A DNA stretch of 40,247 nt from a virus: the IMG/VR virus record IMGVR_UViG_3300045988_055798, one strand, 5' to 3'. The notes under the pieces were generated by a model. The model made no database searches and had not been told where the DNA came from. It worked only from the letters and a program-made list of their open reading frames with translations. Of the stretch, positions 5,191 through 32,495 are shown piece after piece (the stretch's first letter is position 1; each line of letters opens with the position of its first letter). A program made the translations under genes and the position numbers.

Positions 5191-5427
5191 TCACTCCAAA
5201 ATTCCCTGTTCCCTTAGCTGCCGCATGGATTCCCGGTACTTCCTATCCATCTCCTGTTCGGTCGCTTTCCGCTCAATCTCATCATCTGTGATACCATAAA
5301 CCGTCGCCCAATCTTCGGGAGAATCCCCAATATCGGCATCATAGGCTCCCGGCTCATAGACCTCCACAATTGTGGCGATCCGGCCATCCTTAAGTAAAAC
5401 AGATTCATATTGCTGATATTTTGCCAT
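5191..5427 (-). CDS. DUF4926-like small protein (candidate immunity partner of the MuF C-terminal module)
   Basis: 78 aa. YESVLLKDGRIATIVEVYEPGAYDADIGD resembles the DUF4926 SH3-like pattern. Its ATG directly abuts the MuF stop (TAA-ATG). Confidence 0.5.
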   Translation of the reverse strand: MAKYQQYESVLLKDGRIATIVEVYEPGAYDADIGDSPEDWATVYGITDDEIERKATEQEMDRKYRESMRQLREQGILE

Positions 5428-6936
5428 TTATATCTTCTCCATATGAGCTGTTACAAAGTGGGTTGTTCCATCCGGTCTGACATTCCAGGCAAGCAGTACA
5501 TTCGCAGGGCTTCCTTTACGTCCATACAGGACAACCAACTGTTCATAACGCCTTCCATGAACATCCTCCCGTTTGAGTACAGAGGGATACCTTGTTGCTG
5601 CATCCAGAATTTCTTCCCGCATCTTTTCCCAGTTGTCTTTATTATAGCCTAAGCGGGACGAAAATGCATCCCCCTTTGGATACCCGTCTCTGCTTTCCGG
5701 GTTAAAAAAATACCCTGTAAATTTGGCGTCTGCGGCGCTGGCTTTGTCTGCTCCGGGAAGTGCCCGCTCTGGATGCTCCAAAAGCCCGGCCCTCCTGCGG
5801 TAATCCAATCGCCACAGACGGTACCGCTCTCCGTCCTCCCGCTTCTGATGCAGGAAGGTCTCAAATCTCCCGGGCACCCGGTTCCCCAGCGTCACCCGGT
5901 AGCGCTCCCACTGGCGGTAATCCGCCAGCCATTGGGCCCGGGCCCGCTCTTTTTTGCGGTAAGCCGCAATCTGGCTCTCCGACCGCGGGTCTCGGCTGAA
6001 CGGGTTCTTGCGGGGGTTGGAGAAATCCTTTATTTTTTGGATCTCCCCATCTGTCCGGCCCGCCGCCGTCCAGGGCAGCAGCACATGGAGGCAGTTGGGG
6101 TGTATGTTCAGCCAGGTGTTTGCCAGTGTGTCCGGCCCTGCCGGGTCTACCTTCCCGAACGCCGCCGCCAGGGGCGGGAAGTCCGGGTCTGTGCCGCTGC
6201 GGGAGTACACCCGGCCCTCATAGGGTGCGCACAGGGCGCAGGTAGTGCCGTGGCTGGATATCATGTATAGGTCGTGCTCCGGGTCCGCGGTGAGCACCGC
6301 CAACACCTCCGCCTGCCGGGAGGTGGTTCGGGAGACCATCGTGCAGTAGGTATGCAGGCTCCAGTCCCGGCCCGCCTTGTCGGTAAAGGCCCGGACGCCC
6401 TCCCGCCGGAGCGCCTGCACAAAGGAGGGCACCGAGGCGTTCACGCCGCGTCCTGCGGCCTGCTGCTCCGCCACCTGTTCCAGCCCTACCCGGCGGTATA
6501 CGTCCGGCTCCACGCGGCCAAACAGGGCGGATTGCAGGGTAGCCATCACAGTCATGGAGGCGTCGGTTATCTCCCCCATCAAGTTTGCCGCCAGCCGGTC
6601 CACAATGGCGTGCTGCTCACCCGTGAGCACGGCCGCGTTGGCGTAGCCTGCGGCGTGCTTGGCCGCCGTCTCCGGCACCTCCAGGGCCTTCCGGGCCTCT
6701 GGCACCCGGACATAGAACTGCTTTTCAATCATCTTTGGGGCGTATTCCCAGCAGTCTGATTCCATCTGCCGGAGGATGGCCTGCACCCGCTCCAGGGCGG
6801 CCACAGCGTGGTAATCCACCAGGCCCTGGGAGCGAAGCCGCCCGATCTCGTTGATGATGGCGGTTTCCGCTCTTAGATAGATGGAGACGAGCGTTTCCAG
6901 CTCTTTCTCATTCGGCGCCCGATTCAGCGTTGGCAT
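5428..6936 (-). CDS. Head morphogenesis protein (SPP1 gp7 / Mu F family) with an extra C-terminal DUF6883-like module
   Basis: 502 aa. The MuF core ends at NIHPNCLHVLLPW. An Arg-rich linker follows. The last ~100 aa read KFTGYFFNPESRDGYPKGDAFSSRLGY...HFVTAHMEKI. Confidence 0.75.
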   Translation of the reverse strand: MPTLNRAPNEKELETLVSIYLRAETAIINEIGRLRSQGLVDYHAVAALERVQAILRQMESDCWEYAPKMIEKQFYVRVPEARKALEVPETAAKHAAGYANAAVLTGEQHAIVDRLAANLMGEITDASMTVMATLQSALFGRVEPDVYRRVGLEQVAEQQAAGRGVNASVPSFVQALRREGVRAFTDKAGRDWSLHTYCTMVSRTTSRQAEVLAVLTADPEHDLYMISSHGTTCALCAPYEGRVYSRSGTDPDFPPLAAAFGKVDPAGPDTLANTWLNIHPNCLHVLLPWTAAGRTDGEIQKIKDFSNPRKNPFSRDPRSESQIAAYRKKERARAQWLADYRQWERYRVTLGNRVPGRFETFLHQKREDGERYRLWRLDYRRRAGLLEHPERALPGADKASAADAKFTGYFFNPESRDGYPKGDAFSSRLGYNKDNWEKMREEILDAATRYPSVLKREDVHGRRYEQLVVLYGRKGSPANVLLAWNVRPDGTTHFVTAHMEKI

Positions 6937-7578: not shown

Positions 7579-9315
7579 TCACTCCTTCCAGGACTTTTTA
7601 ACGATCACACTTCCGCTACCATCCGCCTCAAGCCAATACCGCTTGCCCTTATAGCTGACTTGACCTTGTTGTCCCGTTTTGGCTCCCGGATATTTGGTAT
7701 TGAACTCACCCCGCAGAATACCGAAGGTCTTGGCTGAGACGGTTTTCCCCCGCTTGTTCGCCCTCTTTGACGGCGCGTACTTTGTTTCCCCAATTTTACT
7801 ATTTCCGCCGCCGCTTGTCCATCTCCCTTTTTTATCCCTTGGCTGGCTGGGCGAATAATCCCATGTCAGCGCGTCCTGCGCGGCCCCCTCAAAAGGGGCG
7901 GATATCTCCCCTCCGTACCCCAGCCCTGCCAATGGATCCCGCAGGGCGGTCACATCCTGGTAGGTTTTCCCGGCGTTGGCCGCGATCTCCTCTTCGGAAA
8001 TACTGTCAAACATCCCGGTCTCGTCCGCCAGCTTCTTGAGCTCCCTCTGAGCCGTGTCCGCCCGGAACAGGCCCGCCTGAAAGGTATCCCGGATGGCCTG
8101 GGCCTTTTTCAGCGCGATCTCCGCCACCTCGGCCGCCGTGGGAGTCCACAGGGGCGGGAAAGTGATGTCCAGCCCGTCGGGTACCGCCCCCCAGGCTGAC
8201 ATGGCCAGGACCGGCAGCAGCTTTTCCAGAATGGGCCGAAGCTTGGCCTCCCGCAGCGTGTCCACGTAGTCATAGTAGTTCCGAAGGTCGCTCTCCCCGG
8301 TGGCGTTCATCCCCGCCGGGGAGCGTCCGAACAGCTTGGTCACCGGAATCCGGGACGCGCCGGACAGGTCGAGGCACATGGAGTCGTAGACCTCCTGGAG
8401 CCCGGTAAAGGTGTACTGGGTATTCTTAATCTGGTCGCCCCGGTTGACCAACTGCATGCCGAAATTGGACTTCATCACGCTTTGGGCCTGCATCACGTTC
8501 CAGAACCGCCTCTGCTGCTCCCCGGACGTAACGGAAAAGAGCTGGTCCAGGTTCTGCACCTCCATGGTGTCCACGTTGGCCCGGAAGGTGAGCGCGGCCA
8601 TGTTGGCGGCCACGTTGTCATGCTTAACCACATCATTGTATAGGGCCTCCACCTCGGACTCTCCCCAGTACAGCTCCGCCACCCGCTCCAGGAAGGGCAG
8701 GTCGCGGCCGGTGAACCGCACCAGCCTTGAGTGGTGCACCTTCGCCACCGTGTTCCCCCTGGCGTTGGTGATGGAGTAATAGGCGGGCACCGGCTCTCCG
8801 CCCTCGAATACCAGCTCCATACCGGGTACCACGCCCTGCCAGCGGTCGAGTATGTAAAGCCCTTGGAAGGTACCGGGGTAAATGCTCTCCAGCTCCAGCG
8901 GCTGGCCCAGCATCCCCTCCTGTCCGCGGATCATGATAAGTCCGGCGGCGCCGCCGTACAGCCTGCCCCACCGCAGTCCCTCGTTGACCCGCTCCCGGAG
9001 CGCCGTCACGCGCTGAACGCGATCCAGTTCCTTCAGGTGCTCCGGCCCCACCGCTCCGGCGAGAGCAAACCACTTCTTTGTCATGTCGTCCGGGATGATG
9101 CCCACCACGTTCTGTACTACCCAGTTGTCCCGGTAGAGGGAGTTGAGCAGGGCGTAGTTGTCCGTCATCCGGGTCAGCGGATACTCTGTGGCCTCCAGCG
9201 GCGACTGGGAGCCATAGCCCAGCCGGAACAGCGGGTTGGAAAATGCGTCTTGTACGCTCACCGCCTCGGTATTTGGTTGTGCGCCCCTGGGGCGGCTTTT
9301 ATTGCGTCTGGACAC
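7579..9315 (-). CDS. Portal protein (DUF1073-type) with Lys/Gly-rich C-terminal extension
   Basis: 578 aa, immediately downstream of TerL. Its size and position fit a portal. The tail contains SQPRDKKGRWTSGGG and is basic. Confidence 0.8.
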   Translation of the reverse strand: MSRRNKSRPRGAQPNTEAVSVQDAFSNPLFRLGYGSQSPLEATEYPLTRMTDNYALLNSLYRDNWVVQNVVGIIPDDMTKKWFALAGAVGPEHLKELDRVQRVTALRERVNEGLRWGRLYGGAAGLIMIRGQEGMLGQPLELESIYPGTFQGLYILDRWQGVVPGMELVFEGGEPVPAYYSITNARGNTVAKVHHSRLVRFTGRDLPFLERVAELYWGESEVEALYNDVVKHDNVAANMAALTFRANVDTMEVQNLDQLFSVTSGEQQRRFWNVMQAQSVMKSNFGMQLVNRGDQIKNTQYTFTGLQEVYDSMCLDLSGASRIPVTKLFGRSPAGMNATGESDLRNYYDYVDTLREAKLRPILEKLLPVLAMSAWGAVPDGLDITFPPLWTPTAAEVAEIALKKAQAIRDTFQAGLFRADTAQRELKKLADETGMFDSISEEEIAANAGKTYQDVTALRDPLAGLGYGGEISAPFEGAAQDALTWDYSPSQPRDKKGRWTSGGGNSKIGETKYAPSKRANKRGKTVSAKTFGILRGEFNTKYPGAKTGQQGQVSYKGKRYWLEADGSGSVIVKKSWKE

Positions 9316-24263: not shown

Positions 24264-24470
24264 TTATTGGGCTTTATCTTTGGTATCATGCTCGCTAAGA
24301 AGATCATCAACAGTGACACCATATAATCGAGCAATCTCAAGAAGTCTTTTGGCGTTTGGCCTAGTTACTCCGGTTTCCCATTGGTATACTGCGGCATCTG
24401 ATACACCTATATTTTTCATTACTTGACTTACAGAAAGCCCAGCCGAGATACGTGCATCACGGAATCCCAT
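24264..24470 (-). CDS. XRE-family HTH regulator (68 aa, Cro/CI-like)
   Basis: ISAGLSVSQVMKNIGVSDAAVYQWETG. GGAGGTG RBS. Confidence 0.8.
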   Translation of the reverse strand: MGFRDARISAGLSVSQVMKNIGVSDAAVYQWETGVTRPNAKRLLEIARLYGVTVDDLLSEHDTKDKAQ

Positions 24471-24599: not shown

Positions 24600-25082
24600 C
24601 TATTTACTTTCTCTCTGGTCACCGCCGCCCAGCTTGTCCCCCGCGCCGTCCACAGTGGACTCCAGGGCGGCGATGGCCTTGCAGAGCCATGCGGGTACAG
24701 GCGCACCGAGGGCACCGATGTTCTCCACAATGCTCCCCAGCTCGGTCATGATATACCAGACCAGCACTAGAACACTCACAAATACCTCATACTGGAAGGG
24801 CAGCTCCAGTGCCGGAATGTTGGCGAGGATCAAACCGATCACCCCGTCCAGAATGGCGGCCACCAGGACGGCCACCACGGCCCCCAGCTTGTGCCACAGG
24901 CCGTCCCTTGCCACCTTGGACGACCACTCCCCGGCCCGGAGGGCGGCGGCGGTGCCGGTGCCGTAGTCGAGCGCCATACAGAGCAGCCAGGCAAGCACCA
25001 GCCAGCCAAACCAGCCCCACAGGGCCGTCAGACCGCCCAGCACGGCGGCGACCGCCGCCTTGAATCCGTTGATATGCTCCAT
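24600..25082 (-). CDS. Holin (toxin-secretion/phage-lysis holin family, TcdE-like)
   Basis: 160 aa with multiple TM segments. LDYGTGTAAALRAGEWSSKVARDGLWHK motif. Confidence 0.8.
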   Translation of the reverse strand: MEHINGFKAAVAAVLGGLTALWGWFGWLVLAWLLCMALDYGTGTAAALRAGEWSSKVARDGLWHKLGAVVAVLVAAILDGVIGLILANIPALELPFQYEVFVSVLVLVWYIMTELGSIVENIGALGAPVPAWLCKAIAALESTVDGAGDKLGGGDQRESK

Positions 25083-27842: not shown

Positions 27843-28740
27843 TGCTTACCACTCCTTCCGCGACGGGGATAATGTGCTTCAAGACCACATTCGTGGTAAC
27901 AGGGATATACACGGTAGAGGACGTGAGGATATTCCCCTCTGCATCCAGCAGTTCCAGGGCGGTGATCTCTGTGGCCTGGGACGGCATGATGGTATAGGTG
28001 ACGGTCAGCTCCGACCCCTCCACGGTCTTGGTCAGTCCGGTAATCGCAACTGTTCCGTTGACCCGGGCGGAGGCCACATCGCCGCTGACGAAGTTCGCCA
28101 CACCGGCCAAGAGGGCCTGCTGGATGGATGGCGTCTCAGGCATCTTAATCACTCCCTCCGGGCCGTCGGTTGCGAAGGGCAGCCGCCCCAGCTCCCACGC
28201 CCCCAGCTTGTAGTTATAAATTCTCTGCGCGGACGAAATTATCTCGGAGAGCAGCAGCCCCGTCCGCACAAACGGGGCGTTGACCCACACGATATGCGCC
28301 GGTTTGATACGGTTGATGGTGAAAGCCAGCTCAGTGGCGTAGTTCTGGTTTTGGGCCGCGCTTTCGATATAAAGTGTGTAGTTTGGGTAGTCTACCGTGA
28401 CCTTCCATTCACCCGGCCCAATCAGCTCGTCCAGCTTTTGATAGAGGAATCCCAGGGTATAGGGCGGACGGGTAGAAATGCGGTTGAGCACGCGGGTCCT
28501 TCGGAATGCCAGGCTTTCCACCTGTGGGTTTGGTACAATTCGGAATACCTGCTCCCACATGCCAACCGCCCTCTCGTCCATCGTCTGGAAAAAGAAATTG
28601 TCAGCCACACCCACGATTTCCTCCGCCAGGGCCTCAAACTGCTGCTGTTCGGTCAAGCAGATCTGCTGATAGTCCAGCACCTCCCGGTACCACGGGGGCA
28701 ACAGGGACAGCAGGCTGGTATCCAGCTCAATTGGATTCAT
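27835..28740 (-). CDS. DUF2313 (XkdU/YmfQ, gpI-like) baseplate protein with C-terminal extension
   Basis: LLSLLPPWYREVLDYQQI...RRTRVLNRI... Confidence 0.7.
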   Translation of the reverse strand: MNPIELDTSLLSLLPPWYREVLDYQQICLTEQQQFEALAEEIVGVADNFFFQTMDERAVGMWEQVFRIVPNPQVESLAFRRTRVLNRISTRPPYTLGFLYQKLDELIGPGEWKVTVDYPNYTLYIESAAQNQNYATELAFTINRIKPAHIVWVNAPFVRTGLLLSEIISSAQRIYNYKLGAWELGRLPFATDGPEGVIKMPETPSIQQALLAGVANFVSGDVASARVNGTVAITGLTKTVEGSELTVTYTIMPSQATEITALELLDAEGNILTSSTVYIPVTTNVVLKHIIPVAEGVVSNG

Positions 28741-29848
28741 TCAGCGTCACCGTCCCTATCACGGGCACCTGCTGGGTTTCGCCCGTCTCCGTCAAGAGGA
28801 GATCTGCCGTACCGCCGTTGAGCTGCACGTTGGTGGCGTTGACCACGCCGGCCACCCCTACGATAGCGGCGGTAACCCTGGCCACGTACACATCGGCAGC
28901 GTAGGACACGTTGTTGGAGGACACGTTGGCGTCCCACCCCTGCCGCACACTGCGCAGATATGTCTCAATGGCCTGCTCCACCGGTTCCTGCACCTGTCCG
29001 ATGGCATGTCCGGCGGCCAGCAGGAGAGTGGCGGAGACATTCACCGCCAACTCTGTCGGGGCCACCGCCGTCACCTTTGCCCCGATAGGGGCCAAGCCCA
29101 GCCCCAGCCCCTGGTTGGGGGGCGGGTCGATGGCATTCTGCACCTTCTCCACCAGTGTGGATGAGGCAGGCAGGAAGTCCGCCCCCAGCACGGACAGCTT
29201 CACAGTGCCACCGCCGTTCCAGGTGGGGTATACCTGCACCCCGCCCACGCCGTCAATGGCGAGGACGTTCTGGCGGTAGTCGGCAATATTGCCGCCAAAG
29301 GGACGGTTATTGAGCGCCTCAATCAGCCGTTCCCGAAATGCGCTGTCGGTCTCCGTGTCGTCACCAGGCACCAGGATATCCGTAATCTGTGCACTGGTCA
29401 GCCCCGGGATGGCGGTAATCGGCAGGATGGGCCCGGTGTACTCGTTTCCGATGGCGCCGGGGGTCTCCGCGGCCAGCTGGTACTGGTTCCCCGTATCGGT
29501 TGCCGCCGTTACGGTAAAGTTGATTGAGCCCGCTCCGTTGATGGTGGAGAACCGGGCTCCAATGGGCACAGAGGTATTGAACACGCCCAGGCGTACCGCG
29601 GCGGAGGCCGGATATCGGGTCAGGCCGCCAATCACAGCCAGCATATCCAGGGAATCCCCCACTGCTGTCTGCACGAAGGCCGCCCGCTGTACCTGATCCA
29701 GGCTGAGATAGAACCCCGCCAGGGTGTAGGCCGCCGGAGAGATGGCCGTCGGGATGGGGGCCGTGTCCCGCTTGTCATAAGTATCGGGCACCCGGTCCAG
29801 CATCTCCTGACGGAGGCTCGCATAGGTCTCTTGAGTAAAGTCAATCAT
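28727..29848 (-). CDS. Baseplate J-like protein (XkdT type)
   Basis: 373 aa. N-terminal FTQETYASLRQEMLDRVP. Position and size fit. Confidence 0.8.
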   Translation of the reverse strand: MIDFTQETYASLRQEMLDRVPDTYDKRDTAPIPTAISPAAYTLAGFYLSLDQVQRAAFVQTAVGDSLDMLAVIGGLTRYPASAAVRLGVFNTSVPIGARFSTINGAGSINFTVTAATDTGNQYQLAAETPGAIGNEYTGPILPITAIPGLTSAQITDILVPGDDTETDSAFRERLIEALNNRPFGGNIADYRQNVLAIDGVGGVQVYPTWNGGGTVKLSVLGADFLPASSTLVEKVQNAIDPPPNQGLGLGLAPIGAKVTAVAPTELAVNVSATLLLAAGHAIGQVQEPVEQAIETYLRSVRQGWDANVSSNNVSYAADVYVARVTAAIVGVAGVVNATNVQLNGGTADLLLTETGETQQVPVIGTVTLNESN

Positions 29849-29861
29849 GTACTCACCTCAC

Positions 29862-29898
29862 AATAAAAAATCCCGCTGCCTCATACCGAGACAGCGGG
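29862..29898 (-). terminator. Strong rho-independent terminator abutting the baseplate-J RBS
   Basis: Minus strand: CCCGCTGTCTC-GGTAT-GAGGCAGCGGG (11 bp, one G-U pair) followed by ATTTTTTATT. Confidence 0.8.
29879..29895. repeat. Left arm of the 17-nt inverted repeat bracketing the cassette
   Basis: cctcataccgagacagc. Its reverse complement gctgtctcggtatgagg matches 32044-32060 at 16 of 17 positions. Confidence 0.85.
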
Positions 29899-29905
29899 AA
29901 GATGG

Positions 29906-30454
29906 TTATGCGGTTAGTCCCTTCGCACCGTCCATCCCCGGAAGACACATCTGTCCGGGAATTTGGCGGTTCAGGGAAACGGGAACCGGAATGTTCCAGG
30001 TGACGAACACGTCTCTTGCCATTGCGCCCACCTCCTGGGGCGTACTCCCCATGTCCAGCATCACCCGGCGGGTAACGCGAATCAGGTTTGCAATTGCGTT
30101 GGGGGATACTTCCGGGGCAAGTCGGGCGGGGGCTGTCAACTGCTCGCTCATCTTCTCGAAGGCCGTCACATAGGCGGCAGTGAACAGCACCCCCTTCTTG
30201 CCGGGCATTTTGTTGGCGATCATGTCACAACCCTTTCGGGTAATCAGGTAGCAGGGGAGTTCTCGGCCAGTTAAATCTTTATAGCTGGACTGAATGAAGA
30301 AATCACTGAGGGGGACTTCGCCCTCAGTAAGATACCCGGAATATGTACGGATACTTTTCAAAAGCTCGTTGTGGCTCCGCTCTACCATCCGCGCCACATC
30401 ACGGCTATCTACCACGTCCACGTCGTGGAAGTTGAAAACTTTTAGCTCGTTCAT
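29906..30454 (-). CDS. Rha-family phage regulatory protein
   Basis: Start at ATG 30454 (MNELKVFNFHDVDVVDSRDVARMVERSHNELLKSIR) after AAGGA. Confidence 0.7.
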   Translation of the reverse strand: MNELKVFNFHDVDVVDSRDVARMVERSHNELLKSIRTYSGYLTEGEVPLSDFFIQSSYKDLTGRELPCYLITRKGCDMIANKMPGKKGVLFTAAYVTAFEKMSEQLTAPARLAPEVSPNAIANLIRVTRRVMLDMGSTPQEVGAMARDVFVTWNIPVPVSLNRQIPGQMCLPGMDGAKGLTA

Positions 30455-30486
30455 TGATTCTATCCTTTCTACCAGTTGTTGTGCCC

Positions 30487-30687
30487 TCACAGCCCCAAAT
30501 AGAAGGTAAAGAGTCCACTAGCTACCCCGGCGGACTCCAGCCGCTCTTGGGCCAGCTCCTTTGCCTGTTTGCTGTCCAGCCTCGCCAGGGCGCAAGCGTC
30601 CGACTCGTAGTAGCTCTCCAAGTCCCGCATGGCCTCAATCGTGGCCGTCAGAATCTCCTGCGGAATCAGATACATTACTTCATTCAT
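30487..30687 (-). CDS. Hypothetical 66-aa protein
   Basis: ATG 30687 (MNEVMYLIPQ...) after GAGGAAA. Confidence 0.45.
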   Translation of the reverse strand: MNEVMYLIPQEILTATIEAMRDLESYYESDACALARLDSKQAKELAQERLESAGVASGLFTFYLGL

Positions 30688-30697
30688 GGCCGTTTCC

Positions 30698-31270
30698 TCA
30701 CGACCGGGCGGGAAGTTCACGTTCAACCGCCCGTTTTATGTCCGTGGCATCAAATACGGAATCAAAATACAACATGCGAAGTGTATCGCTGAGCGGTATA
30801 AGATACTCTGCACTCGTGAACCTCTCTATCATACCCCGTATTACTTCTATGGCGGCGTTCCGTTCTTTTACACGTTTCAGAAGTTCGTCCACAGATTTCC
30901 GTGGCGTTTCCACTTTAGGCGGCTCCGTCCGTTTGTTGAAGTAATTCCGCACAAGCTCCCGCTGCACCTTCCACGCCAGATCGTCCGTGAAGGACTTCAC
31001 CAGCATTAAGTAGCCGGTCTCGGTAATCAGGGTAACATCCATGCACTGTCTTGTATCCATCCCGCCGAACGCTGTCCGAAATTCGGACGCCGTTATTTTG
31101 AAGAAGTCGGTTCCCTCAAGAAACCGCTCCCGGTGGTCGTTGAAGCGCTTCCGGGCCGTACCGGGCGCTCTGCCGTGTACGGCGTCGATTTCCCGGAACG
31201 TAACCACCCTCTGGCCCAGATACTCTTTCACGGCCAGATTCTGGCCATTGACCGCCATATATTCGTTCAT
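30698..31270 (-). CDS. ORF6N-domain (KilA-N-related) antirepressor-like protein
   Basis: GQRVVTFREIDAVHGRAPGTARKRFNDHRERFLEGTDFFKI matches the ORF6N pattern. Confidence 0.8.
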   Translation of the reverse strand: MNEYMAVNGQNLAVKEYLGQRVVTFREIDAVHGRAPGTARKRFNDHRERFLEGTDFFKITASEFRTAFGGMDTRQCMDVTLITETGYLMLVKSFTDDLAWKVQRELVRNYFNKRTEPPKVETPRKSVDELLKRVKERNAAIEVIRGMIERFTSAEYLIPLSDTLRMLYFDSVFDATDIKRAVERELPARS

Positions 31271-31282
31271 AAAAACCTCCTG

Positions 31283-31311
31283 TTGTTTTTCCCAGAAGGC
31301 TGTGGCATAAT
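31283..31311 (+). promoter_or_regulatory. Antisense promoter, unit B
   Basis: TTGTTT, 17 nt, CATAAT with a TGg extension. Same geometry as unit A. Confidence 0.55.
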
Positions 31312-31317
31312 AGATTT

Positions 31318-31391
31318 GCCAAACCTTTTGGGTTGGGTGGCAGGGTGCTCGTTGTTCTCTTGGTCGGGAGAACGGGCACCCTGTTTTTATT
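31318..31391 (+). ncRNA. Candidate ~74-nt cis-antisense RNA, unit B
   Basis: From about 7 nt after the -10 to the hairpin CAGGGTGC..GTTCTC-ttggtcgg-GAGAAC..GCACCCTG followed by TTTTTATT on the plus strand. Confidence 0.5.
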
Positions 31392-31560
31392 CACCGAGTT
31401 CTTCGTCGATCTTTCGATTGAGCCATTCTGCTTTAGAGATTTGCAGTTCTTTTAGTTTTTGCTCAAACTGCTCCATCTTCTGACGTTCAATCTCGACCGT
31501 AAACGACTTAAACTTGATTCTCCGCTCTTTGAAGTACTCGGCCCTGCTCTCAGGTGCCAC
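31387..31560 (-). CDS. Ribbon-helix-helix protein, unit B (57 aa, Arc/CopG-like)
   Basis: GTG start 7 nt after AAGGAGG. (M)APESRAEYFKERRIKFKSFTVEIERQKMEQFEQKLKELQISKAEWLNRKIDEELGE. Shares the MAP start with unit A. Confidence 0.55.
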   Translation of the reverse strand: MAPESRAEYFKERRIKFKSFTVEIERQKMEQFEQKLKELQISKAEWLNRKIDEELGE

Positions 31561-31586
31561 ATCTTCACCTCCTTGTTACGGGCAAC

Positions 31587-31615
31587 ATTATATTATGTTG
31601 CGGGCAACAAGTCAA
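31587..31615 (-). promoter_or_regulatory. Consensus sigma-70-type promoter B with operator-like repeats
   Basis: Minus strand: TTGACT, 17 nt, TATAAT. GTTGCCCGCAAC and GTTGCCCGTAAC flank the -10. A/T-rich AAAATTTTAAAAA lies upstream. Confidence 0.65.
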
Positions 31616-31683
31616 GAGATTTTTAAAATTTTATTCTGTGCGGCGATGGTAATGTCCTGTCCGTTGATTGCTAGGGTGTTCAA
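31612..31683 (-). pseudogene. Truncated 5' remnant of a second ORF6N-type gene (23 codons)
   Basis: AGGAGG, 7 nt, TTG. MNTLAINGQDITIAAQNKILKIS-stop aligns with MNEYMAVNGQNLAVKEY of the intact gene, then runs into promoter B. Confidence 0.5.
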
Positions 31684-31699
31684 TCTAAAAACCTCCTGA

Positions 31700-31728
31700 T
31701 TGATTTTCCCGCGGAGGTCTGGTAGAAT
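31700..31728 (+). promoter_or_regulatory. Antisense promoter, unit A
   Basis: TTGATT, 17 nt, TAGAAT with a TGg extension. Confidence 0.55.
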
Positions 31729-31734
31729 AGATTT

Positions 31735-31808
31735 GCCAAACCTCCGGGTGTGGTGCATAAGGCAATCGGGTACAGCTTCCTACGGCGGGCCCGGTTGTCT
31801 TATTTTTT
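31735..31808 (+). ncRNA. Candidate ~74-nt cis-antisense RNA, unit A
   Basis: Shares the 5' GCCAAACCT with unit B. Ends at the hairpin AAGGCAATCGGG...CCCGGTTGTCTT followed by ATTTTTT. Confidence 0.5.
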
Positions 31809-31964
31809 GACCGCTTCAATCCCCTTACGAATCAGCTCAAGTAGAGAAAATCCACTCTTCCGTGTGAAGTCTTGAATCTCTGCTTTTTCTTTTGGAGTTA
31901 CCCTTATAAATAGCCGTTCGGTCTTAGGGTTATCGCTTTTCGGTCTTCCTTGTGACGGAGCCAC
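31800..31964 (-). CDS. Ribbon-helix-helix protein, unit A (54 aa, MobC/CopG-like)
   Basis: GTG start after AAAGGGGGTG. (M)APSQGRPKSDNPKTERLFIRVTPKEKAEIQDFTRKSGFSLLELIRKGIEAVKK. Confidence 0.6.
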   Translation of the reverse strand: MAPSQGRPKSDNPKTERLFIRVTPKEKAEIQDFTRKSGFSLLELIRKGIEAVKK

Positions 31965-31994
31965 CCAAACACCCCCTTTATTGTCCGCACATTA

Positions 31995-32023
31995 AATATA
32001 TATCGTACGCACAATAAAGTCAA
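31995..32023 (-). promoter_or_regulatory. Sigma-70-type promoter A with an inverted-repeat operator
   Basis: Minus strand: TTGACT, 17 nt, TATATT. TTATTGTGCG / CGGACAATAA inverted repeat spans the -10. AAAAAATTTTGGAAAA lies upstream. Confidence 0.6.
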
Positions 32024-32043
32024 GAGGTTTTCCAAAATTTTTT

Positions 32044-32060
32044 GCTGTCTCGCTATGAGG
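32044..32060. repeat. Right arm of the 17-nt inverted repeat bracketing the cassette
   Basis: gctgtctcgctatgagg. Lies upstream of the promoter A -35, between it and the gp25-like gene stop. Confidence 0.85.
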
Positions 32061-32084
32061 TTGTCAAGGTGCAATCTGGATAGG

Positions 32085-32495
32085 TCAGTTTAGAGTGACC
32101 TCCACACTGGTCTGCATCTCTCCATATACTGTGCTCACGGTGAGGGAGGCCCTCAACATATCCCCTTCCACGGCATACGTAAAGCCGGAGATCCCCCGCA
32201 CCCGGTCGTCCATTTTCAGCGCCTCGGTGATACGCCGCTGAAGTTCCGAGGCCACATACCCCGGGTCCTGCCCGATGAGCCCATCCCACTGCATCCCGGA
32301 GTAGGGGGAATAAATCTGCCAGCGGAACCGCTCCACGTTGAGAATGACTTCCACGGCCTGGCGGACGGACTGCCAGCCGTCGCACTCCCCCTGGATGCGG
32401 TTGGTTTCCTTGTTGATATACCACGTCCTGGAGGGCTGGGAGACGAAGGACACCCCGGCGGACAGGTCGATGGCGGATGTAGGTAAAGTCGGCAT
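32085..32495 (-). CDS. Baseplate wedge protein, gp25/W-like (DUF2634, XkdS type)
   Basis: 136 aa. SRTWYINKETNRIQGECDGWQSVRQAVEVILNVERF pattern. Confidence 0.7.
   Translation of the reverse strand: MPTLPTSAIDLSAGVSFVSQPSRTWYINKETNRIQGECDGWQSVRQAVEVILNVERFRWQIYSPYSGMQWDGLIGQDPGYVASELQRRITEALKMDDRVRGISGFTYAVEGDMLRASLTVSTVYGEMQTSVEVTLN

Follow-up and report, generated by a model that had tools for sequence, protein, structure and literature searches.

How can an accessory gene cassette that ends in its own transcription terminator reside within an operon without silencing the genes behind it? This question is raised by the viral record IMGVR_UViG_3300045988_055798 (IMG/VR), in which 2236 nucleotides (nt) separate the sheath-initiator gene from the baseplate J gene and hold an antirepressor cassette. 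The cassette is bracketed by a 17-nt inverted repeat. The upstream arm of this repeat belongs to an element that we term U, which also contains a motif resembling the boxA of ribosomal RNA (rRNA) operons, and the downstream arm lies within the predicted terminator of the cassette, termed D. We propose that boxA and the upstream arm together most likely let the transcripts of the tail operon, and only these, pass the cassette terminator, which would make D a conditional insulating terminator. Throughout, the window denotes the whole analyzed stretch of 40,247 nt, to which the coordinates refer; all genes of the cassette region are on its minus strand. The features that frame the cassette are (aa, amino acids):

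32085..32495, minus strand: sheath initiator (gp25-like; PF10934), 136 aa, the upstream host gene
32054..32075, minus strand: 5' part of U, boxA-like motif ATTGCACCTTGACAACCTCATA, starting 10 nt past the sheath-initiator stop codon
32044..32060, minus strand: 3' part of U, upstream arm CCTCATAGCGAGACAGC, overlapping the last 7 nt of the boxA-like motif and pairing with 29879-29895
29879..29895, minus strand: downstream arm GCTGTCTCGGTATGAGG, comprising 9 nt of the 5' stem, the loop, and the first 3'-stem bases of the terminator
29861..29899, minus strand: D, predicted intrinsic terminator, with the hairpin at 29899-29871 and the T-run at 29870-29861
28727..29848, minus strand: baseplate J (PF04865), 373 aa, the downstream host gene

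Conservation of the inverted repeat

The repeat had been noticed in an initial annotation of the window, and its position and sequence were borne out. The plus strand at 32044-32060 reads GCTGTCTCGCTATGAGG, and 16 of its 17 positions are identical to the reverse complement of 29879-29895. A repeat finder reported the pair (I2; 17 nt, 94% complementary, 2148 nt between the arms) as the best long-range inverted pair of the region. The right arm lies upstream of promoter A of the cassette, and 20 nt separate its end from the -35 box. The left arm had been placed inside the cassette terminator, and the hairpin 29899-29871, which reads TCCCGCTGTCTCGGTATGAGGCAGCGGGA followed by TTTTTTATTG and has 13 pairs, 8 of them G-C, indeed contains it. 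The ribosome-binding site and the ATG (29848) of baseplate J come 12 nt after the T-run of D. The repeat had also been called very unlikely by chance. According to our own arithmetic, this is correct for the 2.8-kb region, in which about 0.01 pairs of such quality are expected, but not for the whole window, in which about 2 are expected. A scan for the arms with up to three mismatches found no sites in the window beyond the two arms (0.19 expected). Taken alone, the window thus offers suggestive evidence for the repeat. We judged it to be real because 32 distinct cassettes elsewhere contain the same pair together with compensating changes; by sequence comparison, this conservation excludes chance as the explanation.

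Relatives of the region were collected with a baseplate J search, which yielded 65 IMG/VR loci; the deposited phage genomes yielded no closely related region. Many phages with flanking proteins that are 97-99% identical lack the cassette, and their sheath-initiator stop codon overlaps the start of J (…GTGGAGGTGGATATCACTTGATTGAC…). The inserts of close relatives have lengths of 1827 nt (L001, L007, L059) and 1241 nt (L002 and others). In a lineage with a J protein that is only 79% identical (L023, L024), the site is filled with 1832 nt of unrelated cargo, namely another repressor and a BRO-N antirepressor. The window and L023 share only two parts: 32120-32035, with the end of the sheath-initiator gene and the upstream arm region, and 29915-29822, with the terminator and the start of J. 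The L023 arms are CTTCATATTGAGATAGC and GCTATCTCAATATGAGG. They differ from those of the window at three positions, in both arms simultaneously, and the terminator's own 3' stem has changed in step with these differences. The search for the same repeat around different cargo or for empty sites, which the initial annotation had proposed, was therefore positive. The annotation had further named two outcomes that would speak against its interpretation; instead, the repeat was found in close relatives that keep the cassette, and empty as well as alternative sites exist.

Compared with the empty site, the filled site has the cassette in place of 10 nt, and no target-site duplication was found. A similarity between GTGGAGGT and GTGAGGTG at the junctions was considered as a duplication and rejected, as these sequences look like the old and the cassette-borne ribosome-binding site of baseplate J. 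We also rejected an ancestral hairpin that was split by an insertion into its loop, because the empty sites have no hairpin and the two genes simply overlap.

The arms are parts of two elements that occur far beyond this locus. U is an element of about 45 nt with the sequence ATTGCACCTTGA[C/A]AAC[C/T]TCATA(0-2 nt)GAGA[T/C]AGCGGAAA…, which opens with the 18-mer CACCTTGACAACCTCATA. In viral contigs, many unrelated genes have it directly behind their stop codons. D represents a terminator family with the sequence CCCGCTATCTC(0-2 nt)TATGAGGT[G/A]GCGGG plus a T-run, the 5' stem, loop, and first four 3'-stem bases of which are complementary to U. Both elements were found together in 34 unique cassettes (75 copies), at a spacing of 366-4074 nt. 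Relative to the host operon, U was upstream and D downstream in 75 of 75 copies, and none was inverted. In most of the 34 cassettes, a co-directional open reading frame (ORF) stops just before U and another begins just after D. The junction of sheath initiator and baseplate J is occupied in five lineages and was backed by a family search. The other junctions, which were assigned by reading the translations of the flanking ORFs, include those between a conserved ORF of about 190 aa and a long tape-measure-like ORF and between a terminase-like and a portal-like ORF. The cargo, which outside the window was identified from inspection of the ORFs and not by family searches, comprises repressor-antirepressor sets, membrane proteins and lipoproteins, and a toxin-antitoxin-like pair; some of it is on the reverse strand. 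One site contained cargo A, cargo B, or both (L114, L123, L137). The same promoter as in the window follows U in many other cassettes. The U motif was examined in 39 unique viral contexts that extended for at least 2 kb to either side; a strong complement was present within 3 kb downstream in 21 cases, and upstream in 1. U and D are not covered by any Rfam family; between 28500 and 33500, a scan at E values up to 5 gave three chance-level matches only.

Two loci deserve separate mention. On the minus strand of L088, two U-D cassettes of 435 and 499 nt (5289-5724 and 7699-8198) are located at different junctions of one operon, and no gene is obvious in either. Cargo loss may have left them behind as remnants; if so, the loss of only one of the two elements would seem difficult. 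L008 (1659-2985) contains a hybrid cassette with a common-type U and a window-type D; its arms differ at three positions, always with a T in U opposite a G in D, and these are G.U-compatible in the sense RNA.

The pairing of U and D was quantified with an alignment (A1) of 32 distinct U+D pairs, the 17 core pairs of which comprise 525 cells. Only 4 of the 525 cells were not standard pairs, and one of these is the G.G of the window. Compensatory changes were observed at two pairs (UA 9, CG 6, UG 5 at one and UA 25, CG 3, UG 3 at the other), and the insertion or deletion (indel) of 0-2 nt changes on the U and D sides together. None of 500 shuffles reached the observed percentage paired or the observed covariation score, and when the partner was shifted by 1-3 columns, 33-48% were paired instead of 87%. 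Pairing within the D hairpin amounts to 95.9%, also with compensation. U forms Watson-Crick pairs with the 5' stem of D at positions where D's own 3' stem has G.U, and in several cassettes (L091, L095, L098, L114) the helix has a length of 27-30 pairs. In the window, the calculated stability of the U:D duplex was -34.2 kcal/mol, compared with -23.6 kcal/mol for the hairpin; U alone, at -3.6 kcal/mol, is nearly unstructured. The duplex was also stronger than the hairpin in 33 of 33 further cassettes, with medians of -42.2 versus -25.0 kcal/mol. The hallmarks of a terminator/antiterminator system, a predicted hairpin with a U-run and a covarying second strand for its 5' stem, are thus present. 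At the spacing given above, the competing strand does not lie within the same short leader.

The boxA-like motif and the proposed read-through

The 5' part of U was characterized by a genome-wide scan for CACCTTGAMAACYTCATA, the output of which was mixed with chance and coding matches. The 18-mer CACCTTGA[A/C]AAC[C/T]TCATA was found in the 16S-23S spacers of three genomes (L239, L241, L209), 200-260 nt upstream of the 5' end of the 23S rRNA. One genome belongs to the Lachnospiraceae, one to the Oscillospiraceae, and one to other Bacillota. In the L239 spacer, a small hairpin precedes the 18-mer. Both the location and the layout are those of the antiterminator boxA of rRNA operons. Within the window, the boxA-like motif has a single match, which is on the transcribed strand and outside of coding sequence, and the motif has the orientation of the operon in all 34 unique cassettes. 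Studies of cyanobacterial 16S-23S spacers refer to the motif at the corresponding place as Box A. One cyanobacterial spacer carries GAACCTTGAAAACTGCATA at the matching place (PMC7699214). Compared with the consensus GYTCTTTAANA, which is gamma-proteobacterial and may differ in other groups, 8 of 11 positions agree, including C4 and T6 (PMC5725501). Mutations at these two positions abolish boxA function (PMC5725501). The conserved 3' end of boxA, CCTCATA, supplies the first seven bases of the repeat. As the motif matches the boxA of rRNA spacers, U can be described as a boxA plus an arm, and this fusion would offer a plausible route for delivering the arm across kilobases.

Two other functions of U had been considered and were rejected. 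A TTGACA within U was evaluated as a promoter -35 box; it has no consistent -10 box, the spacing varies with the 0-2-nt indel, and the promoter scan was silent. A CACCTT was evaluated as an anti-Shine-Dalgarno sequence for the downstream ribosome-binding site; the complementarity was weak and generic, and the idea was dropped once the motif was recognized as boxA.

A second, independent family was found in chromosomes. At three Lachnospiraceae loci (L166, L173, L181), the same boxA follows a stop codon, but it is joined to a different arm, TCTTATACC..GGGA (CTTCATATCTTATACC..GGGA). This arm is complementary to the loop and the 5' stem of a different terminator, AAACTCCCGGTATAAGATAGGAAG…, which is located 780-890 nt downstream. 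The interval between boxA and terminator contains a promoter and one gene, and a co-directional gene follows. The register is common to both families: the terminator loop is matched by CTTCATA, the 3' end of boxA, and the 5' stem by the arm. The same design with a different sequence argues for function over shared descent. More than 15 species, from Clostridia and Erysipelotrichia, share the identical stretch AGTGAGAGGGAAATCCTTTCACTTGCACCTTGACAACCTCATATACGAATCATTAAGTTTGATCC (L164, L169, L171, L172, L178, L183; also L190, L201, L203, L204, L234, and others), which indicates that it is part of a widely transferred element. In L234, the 13 nt after boxA are complementary to a sequence just 5' of a terminator 4.2 kb downstream, which is suggestive only. 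Complement searches at other genomic boxA contexts resulted mostly in chance-level 11-mers (L206, L277, L278). As a separate observation, the boxA-like 18-mer and a small hairpin are located about 130 nt upstream of the pemK RNA motif (RF02913) in L200 (2364-2558) and also in L185, L180, L235, and L179. This proximity in several Clostridia genomes suggests that boxA may serve other mobile or toxin-antitoxin contexts.

The observed sequences, positions, orientation, covariation, identity with the rRNA-spacer sequence, and relative stabilities can be accommodated in one model. Transcripts that start upstream in the tail operon would carry U. NusB/S10 and other Nus factors would bind boxA on the nascent RNA and hold U beside the RNA exit channel, and the intervening RNA would loop out, as it does in rRNA operons. 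When the 5' stem of D emerges 0.4-4 kb later, it would meet the waiting arm; the duplex being stronger than the hairpin, termination would be blocked, and the polymerase would continue into baseplate J and the fibre and lysis genes. The same complex would shield the polymerase from Rho across untranslated or antisense cargo, which would explain why U is kept in cassettes with reverse-strand cargo. Promoters A and B are downstream of U, so that their transcripts lack it; these could not neutralize D and would stop there. The cassette could then be expressed, for example in a lysogen, without switching on the tail and lysis genes.

The individual steps have precedents in rRNA antitermination complexes, in which NusB/S10 and their partners fasten the boxA RNA near the exit channel and the downstream RNA loops (PMC8632103; PMC5725501). 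The loop between BoxA and the elongating polymerase is made by Nus factors (PMC5725501), and NusA is repositioned such that terminator hairpins are no longer stabilized (PMC8632103; PMC5725501). Holding U at the polymerase would remove the main objection to long-range pairing, namely the kinetics of a 2-kb search in a fraction of a second. The initial annotation had offered two readings of the repeat, and the second, a long-range antiterminator that is present only on transcripts started upstream, is now the best-supported explanation for an inferred read-through; its support comes from the covariation in 32 distinct cassettes, the fusion of the arm to an rRNA-type boxA, and the second family with another arm. 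As a generalization, we tentatively suggest that Clostridia and their phages might possess a portable, sequence-addressed module, in which a host boxA recruits the machinery of rRNA transcription, and this machinery takes the fused antisense arm along with the polymerase to one cognate terminator kilobases further on. The starting point of transcription would then decide whether that terminator works.

Alternative explanations

Several points weigh against the proposed conditional terminator. The rRNA-type antitermination of E. coli counteracts mainly Rho-dependent termination and not intrinsic terminators, and for this reason the model needs the arm. We infer Nus binding, RNA looping, and read-through, and the boxA assignment is likewise drawn from the position in three rRNA spacers, the hairpin before the motif, and sequence similarity. 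The window duplex is the shortest of the family, with 17 pairs and a central G.G mismatch, and it is also the weakest, and three cassettes (L133, L142, L147) have a 1-nt bulge. In one group of cassettes (L111, L126, L108, L105, L082), the D hairpin has no good T-run and U is kept nonetheless. In some others (L123, L147), the cargo is exclusively on the reverse strand, and stopping its transcripts does not require a forward terminator. In such cassettes, U and D may be carried along or may do something else. Some U elements (L096, L081, L296) have no D within 3 kb. Finally, the excess of G.U-compatible over A.C-type arm differences is modest, with about 9-11 versus 3-7 events when repeated inheritance is allowed for. 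The direction of the mismatches is suggestive, but not decisive, in favoring pairing of the sense RNA over explanations at the DNA level, and single-stranded DNA would also be compatible with it.

One alternative takes its cue from the layout of rRNA operons, where one strand of a helix enclosing kilobases comes after boxA: the U-D helix would be a processing stem that is cut by RNase III, thereby excising the cassette RNA or setting the stability of the flanking messages, and any effect on termination would be secondary. The helices of 27-30 base pairs mentioned above would be long enough for RNase III, and such a function would fit the retention of U-D with D elements that have no T-run and with reverse-strand cargo. 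However, the helix of the window has only 17 pairs and one mismatch, and a complement that is aimed at the 5' stem and loop of the terminator, as seen in two unrelated families, would be needless for processing. Moreover, the helix can form only when the polymerase is already past D, and the pairing removes the 5' stem of D, so that antitermination is almost implied wherever D works. We therefore regard a mere processing stem as unlikely.

It could also be argued that boxA alone is functional, as protection against Rho-dependent polarity, and that the complementarity is a by-product, for example of an inverted partial duplication of the terminator that was homogenized by recombination. Roles of boxA against Rho outside rRNA operons are known (PMC5725501; PMC8632103), the cassettes contain untranslated and antisense stretches, and hybrid cassettes such as that of L008 show that the boundaries recombine. 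In addition, a group of viral contigs of 55-130 kb (L079, L080, L084-L087, L089, L093, L101, L103, L104) carries boxA plus CTTCATACCG and then a reverse-strand terminator. No complementary downstream terminator was found in this group, which may have a truncated U or may use boxA alone. Yet a by-product would decay, whereas the core is 99% paired in 32 distinct pairs and both substitutions and indels are compensated; the second family reached the same register with another arm and another terminator; and a strong intrinsic terminator right before essential genes would be left unexplained. In our estimation, this makes a by-product quite unlikely.

Action of the arms at the DNA level, either as terminal inverted repeats recognized by a transposase or as recombinase sites for insertion, excision, or inversion (the latter as in Hin/Gin-type segments and gut invertons), is very unlikely, because, even though the cassette is present or absent among near-identical phages and the same boundaries recur at several gene junctions and around different cargo, Pfam and phrog searches revealed no transposase or recombinase in the window cassette (and inspection by eye only revealed none in other cargo), the empty site is replaced over 10 nt and not interrupted, with no target-site duplication, all 75 copies have one orientation with no inverted copy among related loci, most of the upstream repeat consists of a transcription signal of host type, which is on the sense strand, and 17 base pairs with a mismatch are short for recombination. 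Of the first of the two earlier readings, the boundary of an exchangeable cassette was thus retained, as shown by empty sites and different cargo, and the terminal inverted repeats of a transposable or invertible element were not; overall, the initial interpretation was supported in part.

The cassette of the window and related systems

The conditional terminator would separate two differently controlled sets of genes. In the order of transcription, the cassette opens with promoter A and its probable operator, followed by a ribbon-helix-helix repressor, a structured leader, and the stump of an ORF6N gene. Promoter B and its palindrome then precede a gene for a 57-aa protein, another leader, and the genes for an ORF6N antirepressor and a 79-aa protein; a Rha-family gene and the terminator close the cassette:

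31995..32023, minus strand: promoter A, near-consensus, TTGACT-17-TATATT, overlapped by the probable palindromic operator 31976-32019 (I1)
31800..31964, minus strand: ribbon-helix-helix-type repressor A, 54 aa, NikA-like (E 9.6e-06, 26.1 bits, just below the curated cut-off of 27); phrog_876, transcriptional repressor
31612..31683, minus strand: 23-codon stump of the first ORF6N antirepressor gene, truncated by the inserted module B
31587..31615, minus strand: promoter B, TTGACT-17-TATAAT, with the probable palindromic operator 31572-31611 (I3)
31387..31560, minus strand: small protein B, 57 aa, phrog_3896 (3.8e-20, unknown function), no match in a Pfam search; it occupies the expected repressor position
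30698..31270, minus strand: ORF6N-domain antirepressor, 190 aa, PF10543 (5.4e-14) and anti-repressor phrogs
30487..30726, minus strand: protein of unknown function, 79 aa, 92% conserved in L001, L007, and L059; no family in Pfam or phrog searches
29906..30490, minus strand: Rha-family antirepressor-like protein, 194 aa, PF09669 (5.2e-21) and a phrog match

Downstream of baseplate J, Mu gp48-like and fibre genes are followed on the same strand by the genes for an amidase endolysin and a holin, and for this reason insulation of the cassette matters. Behind the holin gene (24600-25082), the same strand carries a Cro/CI-type helix-turn-helix gene (24264-24470), so that the late operon appears to abut a regulatory region there.

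The cassette itself has a mosaic structure. Down to 31652, the window and L059 share 99% identity, and the two sequences diverge beyond this point. A module that extends from promoter B to the 5' part of the ORF6N gene, including the 57-aa protein and leader B, replaces the sequence down to 31036, and this replacement left behind the 23-codon ORF6N stump (31683-31612). Near-perfect palindromes cover the -10 regions of both promoters, with 22-nt arms at promoter A (31976-32019) and 20-nt arms at promoter B (31572-31611); they probably serve as operators for the two small proteins whose genes come next. Both leaders between repressor and antirepressor (31688-31810 and 31261-31390) have, on the plus strand, an extended -10 promoter followed by a hairpin and a T-run. 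In leader A, this promoter is TTGATT-17-TAGAAT with a preceding TG (31700-31728); the copy in leader B is TGGCATAAT near 31303-31311. Judged by their sequences, these features are candidates for antisense RNAs of about 70 nt, reminiscent of the sar RNA of P22. The two leader copies show compensating stem changes, CCAAAAGG/CCTTCTGG versus CGGAGGT/ACCTCCG.

A comparison with known systems revealed similarities to several of them. The nut-like sites of rRNA operons consist of boxA, followed by boxC and one strand of the processing stem. U shares with them the boxA sequence, which is that of 16S-23S spacers of Clostridia, and a segment after boxA that pairs kilobases downstream, and the published delivery by looping in the rRNA antitermination complex fits directly (PMC8632103). 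In contrast to rRNA operons, the partner is the 5' half of a predicted intrinsic terminator instead of the 3' flank of an rRNA, and the element is found in a protein-coding phage operon, where it encloses an accessory cassette with its own promoters. At the nut sites of phage lambda, boxA is an RNA site on the transcripts of certain promoters, and the polymerase stays attached to it via Nus factors and passes far terminators (PMC8632103). The confinement of the boxA RNA to the transcripts of particular promoters is common to both systems. However, a requirement for an N-like protein or for boxB is not evident here, and the lambda system works on any terminator. Unlike lambda N, put, or canT, U appears to address one cognate terminator by pairing. 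Tn916 contains an insulating terminator, T1, and canT, a structured cis-acting RNA antiterminator of 452 nt that acts on heterologous terminators (PMC11658703). As proposed for D, T1 serves as an insulator that is overridden by an orientation-specific cis RNA from the right promoter only, but that study mentions neither boxA nor complementarity to the terminator (PMC11658703). With attenuators (the trp leader, T-boxes, and riboswitch platforms), the U-D system shares two exclusive pairings that compete for the 5' stem of the terminator, and both of them covary here. The competing strand is 0.4-4 kb away instead of within a leader of about 100-200 nt, and the choice would be made by the start of transcription instead of by a ligand, a tRNA, or the ribosome.

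The gene content of the cassette is most similar in layout to immI of phage P22. According to work ascribed to Susskind and co-workers and to Berget, Poteete and Sauer (1983), immI reportedly comprises arc, ant, and sar RNA and has a terminator between ant and the tailspike gene. Both regions have a small ribbon-helix-helix repressor and an antirepressor, a strong promoter controlled by an operator, and a position in the late operon before a tail gene. In addition, they have in common candidate antisense RNAs in the repressor-antirepressor leader and a closing terminator that is passed by late transcripts and not by cassette transcripts, as is proposed for D. In P22, read-through at the ant terminator is a result of the general late antiterminator gp23. 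The U-D system would serve the same purpose but differs in that it would use an arm in cis, and its ORF6N and Rha proteins belong to other families than Arc and Ant. Morons, reported by Juhala et al. (2000), are accessory genes that are inserted into late operons, in between other genes, together with a promoter and a terminator of their own. The cassettes resemble them in the types of cargo, the possession of a promoter and a terminator, the intergenic position in structural operons, and presence or absence among close relatives. In literature searches, we found no link between boxA and morons, no equivalent antiterminator with a range of kilobases, and no cis signal that reconciles the terminator of a moron with the host operon. 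We found no published description of such an element.

If the suggested portable module exists, it would be a general way of nesting independently regulated genes within operons, in phages and chromosomes alike. The proposed conditional terminator would explain how accessory cassettes with their own terminators can be accommodated in essential, coupled operons without silencing the genes behind, which is a long-standing puzzle of phage mosaicism. The Nus factors and boxA would gain a new task, the delivery of an antisense strand to a specific intrinsic terminator, in addition to protection from Rho and the folding of rRNA. With U of about 45 nt and a terminator, the pair is short, modular, and apparently portable, and it has potential as a promoter-dependent insulator for synthetic operons of Gram-positive anaerobes. 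U and D are found around the accessory-gene cassettes of phages of gut Clostridia, and together they are a simple signature for annotating cassette boundaries in the genomes of gut phages.

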